Positions 1-824 of a stretch of DNA of 5,117 nt are shown piece by piece (the first letter of the stretch is position 1; each line of letters begins with the position of its first letter). A program made the position numbers and the translations under genes. Source of the DNA: a virus (Duplodnaviria > Heunggongvirae > Uroviricota > Caudoviricetes). A model generated the notes under the pieces. It did no database searches and was not told the DNA's origin. It saw only the letters and a list, made by a program, of their open reading frames with translations. The DNA is taken from the IMG/VR virus record IMGVR_UViG_2684622618_000022. One strand, given 5' to 3'.

Positions 1-212
1 GGGTATGTAATCATTCTGGCAATGCTTAATGCCGCTGCTTTTTCCAGATTGGTGATATCCTGCTCCAGAGCGGACAGATTTTCAGCCTGCTTAGCCCTGG
101 CTTCATTGGCCCATTTCAGATCCTGCGCTGCATTAATTTTCTGGTGCATCCACTCATAAAGTTCATCATCGGTATAGTCTGGCGCGATGATGACGGGGTC
201 TCGTTTCTGCAT
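1..212 (-). CDS. Hypothetical prophage protein; start codon in window, C-terminus runs off the left edge (about 70 N-terminal residues visible)
   Basis: Minus-strand ATG is the complement of 210-212, preceded on the minus strand by AGGAG (complement of 216-220) with a 5-nt spacer. My manual translation stays open to position 1 (MQKRDPVIIAPDYTDDELYEWMHQKINAAQDLKW...). Not in the supplied ORF track, probably because it is short and truncated. No family recognised. Confidence 0.5.
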   Translation of the reverse strand, partial: MQKRDPVIIAPDYTDDELYEWMHQKINAAQDLKWANEARAKQAENLSALEQDITNLEKAAALSIARMITY

Positions 213-284
213 GTCGGCTCCTTGTGGTTAGCGTTGCCTGCTTTTTAACCACGTCAGGCGAGGTGGTATCCTCTGAGGGGTCTG

Positions 285-641
285 TTACTCGAGAGGAAAT
301 TGGTTATGAATACAATCAAGTTTTCTTGCCCAGAATGTGGTGGCTAAGTCTTTGACACATCCTTTAAGCCGCAGGGCTCTGACAGTTTCGCGGGAGCCAT
401 CTGCAAAAATTGTGGTCACCTTGTAACTGAAGATGAGTCCTCGCAGTTCGATGACGAAATCGTTGACAATATCTTCGGTGCACTCACCAGAGACTTTCTG
501 AAGTAAAGGCGCATACCGCTTAGTTACCGCTCTGATAACTCTTACCTGTCCTGCAATGGCGCTGATGTCAATATAAAGCGCCATTGCTGCTTCTTTGCCG
601 ATCCCGGGATGCCTTCCATTCTGATGTTTGACTTCGCCCAC
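285..641 (-). CDS. Hypothetical protein, 118 aa from GTG at 641 or 99 aa from ATG at 582-584; function unknown
   Basis: ORF-track ORF 285..641. A GAGGG Shine-Dalgarno lies 7 nt upstream of the GTG on the minus strand; the internal ATG (MALYIDIS...) has only a weak SD. It sits where lambda carries N, downstream of a pL-like promoter, but the protein is not arginine-rich and no family is recognised. Confidence 0.5.
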   Translation of the reverse strand: MGEVKHQNGRHPGIGKEAAMALYIDISAIAGQVRVIRAVTKRYAPLLQKVSGECTEDIVNDFVIELRGLIFSYKVTTIFADGSRETVRALRLKGCVKDLATTFWARKLDCIHNQFPLE

Positions 642-824
642 TGAGAAACCCTCTGTTTCCCCTTAACGCCGGGGTAGCGGAACAAAAAACTGCTGCATAG
701 TTATTAAAGTTGAACCCTGCCGTCATGTTCATACGCCTCGGGCTGGCTACTTAACCCCTGACCACTGCCGGGTAACTCGAAGTATTTCCCTGCGTTCTGT
801 GGGGCGGGGTGGGTTGGTATTTTT

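Follow-up and report, generated by a model that had tools for sequence, protein, structure and literature searches.

What does a lambdoid prophage encode at the very start of its early-left operon when no N gene is found there, and is the long untranslated stretch ahead of its first gene anything other than spacer? The stretch of DNA analysed here (5,117 nucleotides in all, hereafter the window) represents the immunity region of a lambdoid prophage of the Qin/CP-933P-like type and shares 99.7% identity with E. coli O157:H7 chromosomes. An initial annotation of its left end had described an ORF at 285-641, a partial ORF at 1-212 and a leader downstream of a pL-like promoter, and all three are indeed present. 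Its reading of the region as an operon start that lacks an N-type antiterminator has held up, as has its suggestion that the leader may carry regulatory RNA structure, for which covariation now provides strong evidence. Its account of the ORFs and its guess at anti-restriction or exclusion functions fared less well, and the leader proves to be the most interesting part.

The promoter from which the operon would be transcribed is the following.

825-852, minus strand: pL-type promoter, with -35 hexamer TTGACT (852-847), 16-nt spacer and -10 hexamer TAAACT (830-825), located by promoter scan

This promoter is of the sigma-70 type, overlaps the OL operator and directs transcription leftward. The pL/OL label is justified because its -35/operator block (826-855) is repeated, in inverted orientation, by block 1837-1861 of the rightward promoter pR (1837-1869). 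Transcription would begin at about A818. A 177-nt gap (818-642, minus strand) separates the promoter from ORF 285-641, and in the window the pL transcript would run for approximately 230 nt (818-585) before it reaches the probable ATG start of the first gene. Conservation of the leader starts directly after the -10 hexamer, and the first helix described below begins 3 nt past the presumed start site.

The leader (818-642) is a structured RNA, with a core of roughly 105 nt (815-713) and a 3' module (696-659), and not spacer DNA. Its parts are as follows.

713-815, minus strand: leader RNA core, one long irregular hairpin with four covarying helices (covariance model R1, 78.9 bits, E = 1e-15 to 1e-17)
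815-811/717-713, minus strand: helix P1 of the core
810-806/758-754, minus strand: helix P2b of the core
802-799/765-762, minus strand: helix P2a of the core
793-788/772-767, minus strand: helix P3 of the core, capped by the distal loop
787-773, minus strand: conserved distal loop of 15 nt, consensus CAAUAC-NNN-GAGUUA (window variant AAAUAC...)
719-753, minus strand: 35-nt strand UAAGUAGCCAGCCCGAGGCGUAUGAACAUGACGGC, between P2b and P1 on the 3' side of the core
659-696, minus strand: 3' module, comprising GCAGCAG (696-690), GUUCCGC (683-677) and hairpin P5, kept in most lineages
674-671/662-659, minus strand: hairpin P5, with covarying arms CCCC and GGGG and loop GGCGUUAA

The evidence for this architecture is comparative. 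In the model-fitted alignment, compensatory changes occur at 24 of the 24 modelled pairs, and 83.7% of the cells are paired; shuffled alignments reach 64%, and slid controls do not exceed 48%. A hand alignment likewise yields 11-16 distinct arm pairs per helix, with 94% paired, and RNAalifold recovers P2b, P2a and P3 unaided. Folded as a single sequence, the leader gains no energetic advantage over its shuffles (z = +0.9), and thermodynamics alone would consequently have missed the element. A protein-coding reading of the leader was rejected: 1-nt and 6-nt indels between variants break every frame, and the ORF that starts at the AUG varies in length. The 5' strands of the helices are consistently rich in C and A, a composition that is also found at Rho-loading sites.

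Within the core, the 35-nt strand contains GAGG (739-736) followed after 9 nt by AUG (726-724), as well as a possible 3-bp hairpin (GCC/GGC). Its identity across 66 aligned loci is in large part a product of how these loci were selected, because the collection pattern fixed 27 of its 35 bases, GAGG and AUG included. Two observations are independent of the pattern. The strand is identical outside N positions in the window, two E. coli phages and an Actinobacillus phage, all of which were found by BLAST, and the A at its third variable position (732), which belongs to no pattern, is invariant in a 30-sequence alignment (A3). Being invariant, the strand cannot show covariation within itself. The arms of hairpin P5, by contrast, occur as CCCC/GGGG, ACCC/GGGU, GCCG/CGGC, GCCAG/CUGGC, GCC/GGC and GCG/CGC. 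The 3' module is separable: the Qin prophage of K-12 keeps it without the core, and so do the PPompW prophages, as judged from the end of DNA similarity at window position 683. The P5 loop bears a by-eye likeness to the ops element of RfaH that fails at what we take to be the ops-defining positions.

The core is widespread. It is present in 3704 of 5426 complete E. coli genomes (about two thirds), including K-12, whose copy lies in the racR-ydaG spacer of the Rac prophage, and it was found in Escherichia, Shigella, Serratia, Pectobacterium, Symbiopectobacterium, Arsenophonus and one Actinobacillus phage. Each prophage carries a single core, directly after the repressor gene and promoter; no second copy was detected in 3.2 kb of the window's pR operon (filters off) or in the 66 loci. 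In ten further loci, representing eight sequence types, it lies about 90-200 nt past a repressor gene (HTH or cI-like) of the same orientation, and in one of these (L009) an extra ORF intervenes between repressor and core. The same core is combined with different repressors, operators and first genes, and nothing else in the region is as well conserved as the leader. Its identity is 88% to Rac-type phages, despite their different repressors and downstream genes, and 75-80% to the Actinobacillus phage, a level of conservation far above chance. The element always ends 10-20 nt ahead of a start codon. Rfam 15 gave no match within 642-825 at E <= 1 and none at the element in six related loci at the gathering score; its matches to mir-4703 (872-918) and speF (4497-4602) elsewhere in the window were set aside as chance. 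Our literature search found no paper describing the element. As far as sequence comparison can tell, the core is a previously undescribed structured RNA that sits without annotation in thousands of sequenced genomes.

What might such an RNA do? It probably controls early phage transcription. More tentatively, we favor a cis-acting role in the control of elongation or antitermination of the early-left transcript. The repressor-controlled pL would start at about 818 and yield the folded RNA at once, first the P1-P2b-P2a-P3 hairpin with its loop motif at the tip and the invariant strand on its 3' side, then the small 3' module. The folded leader would act in cis on the transcript or on its own polymerase, and early-left transcription could then pass the untranslated and antisense stretches and the intrinsic terminators ahead, the latter being of the DicF and KilS types and lying upstream of dicB/kilR and the recombination genes. 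The pL transcript would next encode a small protein (584-285) and then YdfC. In its action the leader may be likened to HK022 putL or a nut site, but its sequence and fold are unrelated to either. The partner of the invariant strand would be RNA polymerase, Nus factors or the 30S subunit rather than a phage protein; a conserved host machine is the likelier partner because phages of Enterobacterales and of Pasteurellaceae share this strand unchanged.

Several features of related prophages favor this proposal. DicF and its terminator lie downstream in the same operon of the window's O157 twin, and in K-12 Rac kilR is preceded by the KilS terminator. The racR-ydaG spacer of Rac belongs to the same operon type as the window's leader and carries the whole element, and no N gene is annotated in the inspected part of the Rac leftward operon. 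Removal of RacR induces this entire operon, out to recE, ralR, xisR and intR (bioRxiv 10.64898/2026.09.06.749655), with induction of 40- to >70-fold (PMC6765115). Further points in its favor are the conserved structure, the position of the core right after the presumed start site, its combination with different repressors and first genes, the long untranslated stretch ahead of the first gene, the C- and A-rich 5' strands of the helices and the boxA that follows the core in some relatives (see below). The dicB operon leader of K-12 Qin (dicBp-ydfA) is again of the same operon type, with the 3' module, ydfA/B/C, dicF and dicB, but Qin lacks the core, and the window has a 99-aa ORF/zinc-ribbon pair in place of ydfA and ydfB. 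Against the proposal, both Qin and the PPompW prophages have lost or never had the core while retaining promoter, 3' module and operon type, which makes the core dispensable in some prophages. The single copy per prophage, with none at pR, the unremarkable folding energy of the single sequence and the near-even wobble counts (given below) weigh against it as well. Nor is it simply a substitute for N and nut, as core-bearing prophages of Symbiopectobacterium also encode a homologue of lambda N (phrog_271, E = 9e-11) along with boxA.

The best-known precedent is phage HK022, which antiterminates its own early transcripts by means of the put RNA and without a phage antitermination protein; put is approximately 70 nt long, forms two side-by-side stem-loops and has copies after both pL and pR (PMC9378689). 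The window's element resembles putL as a lambdoid RNA directly downstream of pL and, if our proposal is correct, would also resemble it in acting in cis to make transcription ignore terminators. It differs in being a nested four-helix hairpin of about 105 nt with an asymmetric 35-nt strand, followed by a 3' module, and, although the pL position is shared, it has no copy at pR. The pL-nun spacer of HK022 gives no meaningful alignment with the element, and model R1 finds nothing at E <= 1 in the HK022 immunity region (L006). In fold, size, sequence (by these two comparisons) and the lack of a pR copy, the element does not match the put family. A further mark of that family is antitermination that depends on the zinc-binding domain of the RNA polymerase beta' subunit.

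A bolder version of our proposal, and a doubtful one, would make the core a new class of RNA that binds host machinery (likely RNA polymerase or the 30S subunit), is unrelated to put and brings about processive read-through independently of N. Were this true, it would represent a second and far more widespread solution to the problem solved by HK022 put, unnoticed in E. coli K-12. Few prophages are commoner in E. coli than those of the Rac and Qin types, which carry the toxic early-left genes kilR and dicB, as well as DicF and recET. We found no explanation in the literature for how their leftward transcription passes terminators without N, and a conserved folded RNA at the exact 5' end of the transcript would be an obvious candidate. 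The Rac copy in the K-12 racR-ydaG spacer makes the proposal directly testable. Should the core bind RNA polymerase or the ribosome, it would join, as a new member, the natural RNAs that regulate the core machinery of gene expression; should its function be otherwise, it would still be an unannotated structured RNA in thousands of genomes.

Other functions have to be weighed against cis-acting control of elongation. The core might serve ribosome- or leader-peptide-dependent control, with GAGG and AUG forming a real ribosome-binding site; once the 30S subunit binds, or a ribosome translates a short ORF (MTA...), P1 and the 3' module would rearrange, and this would set translation of the first gene or shield the leader from Rho or RNase E. 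The two motifs do lie at workable spacing in a strand that is invariant across the collected loci (though the collection pattern included both), the ORF that opens at this AUG runs through the 3' arm of P1, and the short distance from the element's end to the start codon would fit as well. We nonetheless consider this role unlikely, as the leader ORF differs between loci in length (6, 16, 18 or >50 codons), frame and sequence, no U-tract comes after P5, which also leaves the Shine-Dalgarno sequence at the start site uncovered, and no alternative pairing between core and 3' module covaries. A riboswitch variant of the same idea could point to covarying helices around an invariant core (presumably a tertiary fold) in a 5' UTR with the start codon directly after, all of which recall riboswitch-type leaders; unlike these, the element has no recognisable expression platform, Rfam match or metabolic gene context, and its gene context suggests no ligand.

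It is also conceivable, though quite unlikely in our judgment, that a phage early protein or a host factor (e.g., Nus) docks on the core as on a nut site and then modifies RNA polymerase; boxA or the 3' module would supply the other half of such a site. With boxA defined as CGCUCUUA / UGCUCUUUAACA and searched for as [CT]GCTC[TC]T[TA]A, the pattern is absent within 700 nt after the core in the window and present in L132, L138, L137, L016, L024 and L078. A consensus boxA (CGCUCUUUAACA) occurs 30-50 nt past the core in Symbiopectobacterium and Arsenophonus prophages and, in some phages of the E. coli type, behind ydfA at a distance of about 300 nt downstream. Three loci have it next to the core, two from Symbiopectobacterium (L132 and L138) and one from Arsenophonus (L137), and in some relatives a hairpin ahead of boxA recalls rrn leaders (boxB-boxA-boxC); the core also occupies the position of lambda nutL (boxA plus boxB) in the early-left leader, and in L130 the N homologue is encoded approximately 870 nt downstream. 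Against a docking site stand the absence of boxA from the window's leader and of a constant protein partner, with first genes that differ from phage to phage (ydfA, ydaG, the 99-aa ORF and others), and the lack of an N homologue in Rac- and Qin-type prophages. The core exceeds any boxB in size by a wide margin and is conserved far more strongly. The boxB of lambda-type phages varies along with its own N protein, whereas the core does not vary. No N homologue was found in the window among the listed ORFs of at least 30 aa or by profile scan of three early-left proteins, and among relatives one occurs only in Symbiopectobacterium. The 42-45-aa proteins of L009 and L087 were rejected as N-like arginine-rich candidates: the former weakly matches lambda Kil (phrog_2055, E = 0.001) and the latter matches nothing.

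A trans-acting role strikes us as decidedly unlikely; here the element would be a stable RNA, for instance a regulatory sRNA, or an immediate-early product that decoys or sponges up a host factor or a defence system. The element would be the first RNA made on derepression, its core is compact and closed by P1, and the sRNAs DicF and KilS are cut from the same operons. However, its 3' end has no terminator or known processing site, and no sRNA is annotated at this site in K-12, a strain of which many sRNA surveys have been made.

Context points to the pL-sense strand as the functional one. That an RNA antisense to the leader, or folded single-stranded DNA, is the functional molecule is very improbable: although Watson-Crick covariation is strand-symmetric and the hand alignment holds 13 G-U against 11 A-C wobble pairs, 7 of the 11 A-C fall at a single mismatch-tolerant P3 site that also shows A-G, G-A, A-A and C-C mismatches, conservation begins exactly at the pL start site, the boxA and start codon that follow are in the pL sense, and the other strand has no conserved promoter, since the downstream genes differ between phages.

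Beyond the leader, the region contains three coding sequences.

285-641, minus strand: early-left ORF, 118 aa from GTG 641 or, more likely, 99 aa from ATG 584; phrog_21318
306-506, plus strand: zinc-ribbon gene of 66 codons, ECs_2282 family (CPEC...CKNC), wholly inside ORF 285-641 and annotated in RefSeq
1-212, minus strand: ydfC, codons 1-70 of 72; the remainder lies beyond the left end of the window

The initial annotation took ORF 285-641 for a lone gene and missed the zinc-ribbon gene on the opposite strand. At this place RefSeq annotates the zinc-ribbon gene only and not the minus-strand frame. Model NF047912 (ECs_2282) scores 57.3 bits with the intact O157 allele, above its cut-off of 37, which places the protein in this family. 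Its homologues are 58-98% identical, and C8, C11, C33 and C36, forming two CxxC pairs, are invariant in seven of them. The window's copy is interrupted, and inactivated, by a change of GAA to TAA at 345 (E14*), a nonsense allele that it shares with the PPompW prophages; the allele is intact in O157 and in phage Evi. The codon pattern indicates a gene under selection: within the overlap, 29 changes are synonymous in the plus frame only (9.6 expected) and 9 in the minus frame only (11.2 expected; p = 1.5e-4). Nothing was found in support of the suggested anti-restriction or exclusion functions. The zinc ribbon scores 15.7 bits with the model of the Lar restriction-alleviation family (TIGR03655), far under its cut-off of 39.6, and the likeness is that of a generic zinc ribbon.

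The minus-strand frame appears to be a real gene as well, with its N-terminal part under purifying selection. Its homologues are 58-98% identical in Escherichia, Klebsiella and Citrobacter, and it is co-oriented with the surrounding genes in every locus examined (six contexts). Codons 20-44, which lie outside the overlap, show 16 synonymous and 10 non-synonymous changes, where neutrality would give 26% synonymous (p = 1.4e-4), with wobble variation inside the conserved motif SA(I/V)AGQ. An AlphaFold2 model of the product (mean pLDDT 68.7) has a helix-helix-helix-hairpin-helix arrangement; sequence searches and Foldseek returned no significant match to the 99-aa protein in the PDB, with weak winged-helix-like matches at best E = 0.15.

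One of the two frames could instead be a mere shadow of the other, which we consider somewhat doubtful. Because the frames are codon-aligned, a gene without TTA, CTA or TCA codons has no stop in its antisense frame, and this register makes shadow frames common and their 'proteins' conserved-looking. The two frames are always found together, the minus frame shows no synonymous excess within the overlap (12/50), and the AlphaFold2 model of the zinc ribbon is poor (pLDDT 52). Each frame nonetheless carries a signal of its own, the plus frame in its strong synonymous excess and four invariant cysteines, the minus frame in its strong synonymous excess outside the overlap, its operon-consistent orientation in six contexts and its moderately confident fold. 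A plus-strand hairpin at 553-587 was considered as the terminator of the zinc-ribbon gene, with the minus ORF as shadow, and discarded, as codon analysis shows the minus frame to be under selection there. A metagenome contig (L159), riddled with indels, gave no information. The two ORFs are a well-supported candidate for a pair of genes on opposite strands of the same DNA, and they pose an annotation problem, with RefSeq calling one strand and phage annotators the other.

The partial ORF at 1-212, for which the initial annotation recognised no family, belongs to the named family YdfC. It matches phrog_1744 with E = 4e-39 over 68 of 68 profile positions, 69 of its 70 residues are identical to the O157 copy, and RefSeq names the orthologous gene 'protein YdfC'. 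In K-12 Qin, ydfC occupies the same place in the gene order, after ydfA/ydfB and before dicF-dicB.

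The early-left transcript of Rac/Qin-type prophages begins with an undescribed, widespread structured leader RNA, which is open to direct testing in E. coli K-12. The valuable part of the initial annotation was the leader, to which it gave least emphasis. The window corresponds to the immunity region of a Qin/CP-933P-type lambdoid prophage. Over its first 1000 bases it matches, at 99.7% identity, a prophage that many chromosomes of E. coli O157:H7 carry. Both minus-strand frames described in the annotation are in place, and so is the gap of about 180 nt; the partial frame at 1-212, reported as belonging to no recognised family, is YdfC, a named protein (RefSeq; phrog_1744, E = 4e-39). 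The features of the region are as follows.

RefSeq genes, right to left: repressor-like gene, relB, relE/parE toxin, the gap, zinc-binding protein, ydfC
Between the gap and ydfC, plus strand: "ECs_2282 family putative zinc-binding protein" (RefSeq)
Beyond ydfC, leftward (RefSeq): dicB, ydfD, exonuclease gene
Rightward of the repressor: Cro-like regulator, YdaT-family protein, replication-initiator-like protein, DnaC-like ATPase
852-847 and 830-825, minus strand: leftward sigma-70 promoter (TTGACT, 16 nt, TAAACT)
306-506, plus strand: zinc-ribbon gene (RefSeq gene mapped to the window, which has one additional base at 242)

The -35/operator block of the leftward promoter is an inverted repeat of the block at the rightward promoter (1837-1869); this justifies the earlier label "pL-like", and the expected transcription start is about A818. 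The interval from the relE/parE toxin gene, which ends at 937, to the pL promoter contains an inverted repeat (872-918; 22-nt arms, 3-nt loop) that may keep transcription of the repressor-relBE operon from running on into pL; a mir-4703 match there is a chance product of the repeat. The RelB antitoxin/RelE-ParE toxin pair (937-1408) occupies the slot of lambda's rexAB, between the repressor gene and OL/pL, and 50 masked bases (N, 2300-2349) fall within the YdaT-family gene, in the cII position.

In a similarity search of phage genomes the leader (658-819) stands out, being shared at 88% identity by Rac-type phages that differ from the window in repressor, operators and downstream genes alike, and at about 75-80% by a phage of Actinobacillus pleuropneumoniae. 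In each such phage it has the repressor gene on one side and the first early-left gene on the other, its conservation setting in directly after the -10 hexamer and ending 10-20 nt short of a start codon. A pattern of the most conserved stretch matched at least 120 IMG/VR contigs (90 distinct variants). A looser form, run on a one-genome-per-species collection, matched 24 places, in Escherichia, Shigella, Serratia, Pectobacterium, Symbiopectobacterium, Winslowiella, Superficieibacter, Arsenophonus and two metagenome-assembled genomes, labelled Nanosynbacter and Collinsella, that carry E. coli-type copies. Of 5426 complete E. coli genomes, 3704 carry the folded core of the leader (815-713, minus strand), in up to six copies each, and the genome of Symbiopectobacterium purcellii has at least five. 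No E. coli record among the matches listed has an annotated feature under the core, and the complete copy of K-12 MG1655, in the racR-ydaG spacer of Rac, lies where RefSeq annotates nothing. No Rfam family matches the element, and searches of full-text literature by sequence string and gene names found no account of it. The pL-putL region of phage HK022 shows no similarity to it by alignment or covariance model, and its architecture is unlike the two stem-loops of HK022 put (PMC9378689).

The suggestion that the leader may hold RNA structure was borne out. Leader variants differ by paired changes which, read by hand, define a single long irregular hairpin of four helices (P1, P2b, P2a and P3), with 11-16 distinct arm pairs per helix and 94% of positions paired. 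A covariance model built from two Pectobacterium-type copies and this hand-read structure found exactly one copy per locus in 66 of 66 loci (35-158 bits), including the window copy (703-825, minus strand, 78.9 bits); the lowest score belongs to an IMG/VR contig (L008) whose copy lacks its 5' half. In the model-fitted alignment, compensatory changes are seen at every one of the 24 pairs. Of its cells, 83.7% pair (64% when shuffled, at most 48% with partners slid), and it reaches a covariation score of 0.379, where slid controls reach no more than 0.072; these figures are inflated because the alignment was built on the structure. The hand alignment agrees with it, and RNAalifold, making its own prediction from the same model-fitted alignment, recovered P2b, P2a and P3. 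The P3 tip varies little (CAAUAC-NNN-GAGUUA), with only the middle three bases free, as if these were a terminal triloop capping a non-canonical helix extension. Little or no variation is seen in the 35-nt strand between P2b and P1 (UAAGUAGCCAGCCYGAGGCNNANGAACAUGACGGC), where uniformity among the loci is partly by construction, the strand being mostly fixed by the patterns that collected them; outside the N positions it is identical in the phages found by BLAST, that of Actinobacillus included.

Downstream of the core, the little-varying 3' module (696-659, minus strand) runs from GCAGCAG through GUUCCGC to a hairpin, P5, whose arms covary. The modules of the leader are separable. K-12 Qin has the 3' module alone, behind its own promoter, and the PPompW prophages appear to retain it alone likewise, since their similarity to the window stops at 683. 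Pectobacterium-type copies carry an additional hairpin of about 100 nt between core and 3' module. At L009 and L087, two of the compared loci, an inserted hairpin (about 100 nt) lies between P1 and the GCAGCAG...GUUCCGC module, and its arms covary (GAGAGCGUUUCGCGGUG/CACCAGCGAAACGCUCU versus GAGGGCG.../...CGCCCU).

Watson-Crick covariation is the same for either strand, and the wobble counts favour neither, at 13 G-U to 11 A-C; seven of the 11 A-C pairs fall at a single mid-P3 site at which A-G, G-A, A-A and C-C mismatches also occur. We place the RNA on the pL-sense strand by its context: lineages whose operators are unrelated have the promoter immediately ahead of it, conservation sets in sharply at the start site, and the boxA signals and start codons downstream share that sense.

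Control of transcript elongation by the leader RNA is a tentative reading, suggested by five features. The element holds the same position as the antitermination sites putL of HK022 and nutL of lambda. Prophages of Symbiopectobacterium and Arsenophonus have a perfect boxA (CGCUCUUUAACA) within 30-50 nt downstream of the core, with a hairpin ahead of it in the former, and the same boxA stands after ydfA in some E. coli-type phages. Intrinsic terminators lie ahead in the operon (DicF in the O157 twin of the window, KilS in K-12 Rac). K-12 Rac carries the core, the inspected part of its leftward operon has no annotated N gene, and loss of RacR induces that operon entire, out to recE, ralR, xisR and intR. 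Lastly, the 5' strands of the helices are C/A-rich throughout. A simple replacement of put is argued against by three facts: K-12 Qin and the PPompW prophages manage without the core, a lambda N homologue (phrog_271, E = 9e-11) is encoded alongside the core in Symbiopectobacterium prophages, and no second copy of the element was found downstream of pR. The signals concerned are listed here by locus.

L132 3048-3059: consensus boxA (C/UGCUCUUUAACA)
L138 975-964: consensus boxA (C/UGCUCUUUAACA)
L137 7295-7306: consensus boxA (C/UGCUCUUUAACA)
L016 2844-2855: consensus boxA (C/UGCUCUUUAACA)
L024 3717-3728: consensus boxA (C/UGCUCUUUAACA)
L078 5387-5376: consensus boxA (C/UGCUCUUUAACA)
L130 (S. purcellii) 3666-3304, minus strand: lambda N homologue, 120 aa, phrog_271, C-terminal RIWYSKP...GIT motif

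The boxA at these six loci, which belong to related prophages, comes directly after the core or after ydfA, usually with a hairpin upstream, as in rrn leaders; the N homologue of L130 lies about 870 nt downstream of the core. KilS (L151, K-12 Rac, 1906-2003, minus strand) and DicF (L001, an O157 prophage, 2600-2651, minus strand) have a common terminator motif (...GCCGCCCUUUUU) and common flanking sequence upstream of kilR and dicB, and from their sequences look like homologous sRNA/terminator cassettes in two operon types.

Other readings of the leader RNA are live. It might act through ribosomes or a leader ORF, as the 35-nt strand contains GAGG, 9 nt and AUG, which resembles a ribosome-binding site, although neither the length nor the frame of the ORF from this AUG is conserved; it might also be a protein-docking site or a trans-acting RNA.

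Within the minus-strand ORF at 285-641, RefSeq annotates only the plus-strand zinc-ribbon gene and phage annotators only the minus-strand frame. The simplest reading is a genuine opposite-strand gene pair; that one of the two is a shadow frame is less likely. Homologues of both, down to about 58-60% identity, occur in Klebsiella, Citrobacter and Enterobacter, always paired, and the frames are codon-aligned, every column being a codon in both. In the overlap, 29 single-base changes are silent in the plus frame alone (9.6 expected) and 9 in the minus frame alone (11.2 expected), p = 1.5e-4. From this plus-frame excess and four invariant cysteines, the zinc-ribbon frame is under purifying selection. 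For the minus frame, 16 of 26 changes in codons 20-44, outside the overlap, are synonymous (26% expected, p = 1.4e-4), the conserved motif SA(I/V)AGQ contains clear wobble variation, and the frame is co-oriented with its neighbours in all contexts examined. AlphaFold2 gives its protein three helices, a beta-hairpin and a helix at moderate confidence (pLDDT 68.7), with weak winged-helix-like Foldseek matches (best E = 0.15). The zinc-ribbon model is poor (pLDDT 51.9), as is often so for tiny metal-binding proteins, and the zinc ribbon scores far under the threshold of the Lar family. The zinc-ribbon allele of the window, shared by PPompW prophages, is interrupted by a stop at codon 14, and the minus frame is intact. 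The pair moves as a cassette, since some Citrobacter and Klebsiella-type prophages carry the minus-strand homologue in the rightward early operon.

L163 1230-1782: 93-aa homologue of the minus-strand ORF
L158 2504-3041: 93-aa homologue of the minus-strand ORF

In both it follows a Cro/YdaS-like gene by 28 nt, hence in the rightward rather than the leftward operon. Just past the zinc-ribbon gene, a perfect hairpin of 11 bp (GCAATGGCGCT...AGCGCCATTGC) with TGCTTCTTT behind it (553-587, plus strand) looks like its terminator, and lies where the minus-strand ORF has its conserved N-terminal codons. The O157-type group shares this hairpin with its relatives at 71-77% (L160, L161), in an alignment that stops short of the most distant homologues at this point. 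Upstream of the zinc-ribbon gene, 38 nt (235-272) recur at 97% identity in HannyBb and mEp460_ev081, phages that have nothing else in common with this region, and hold a weak promoter-like pair (TTAACC, 16 nt, TATCCT).
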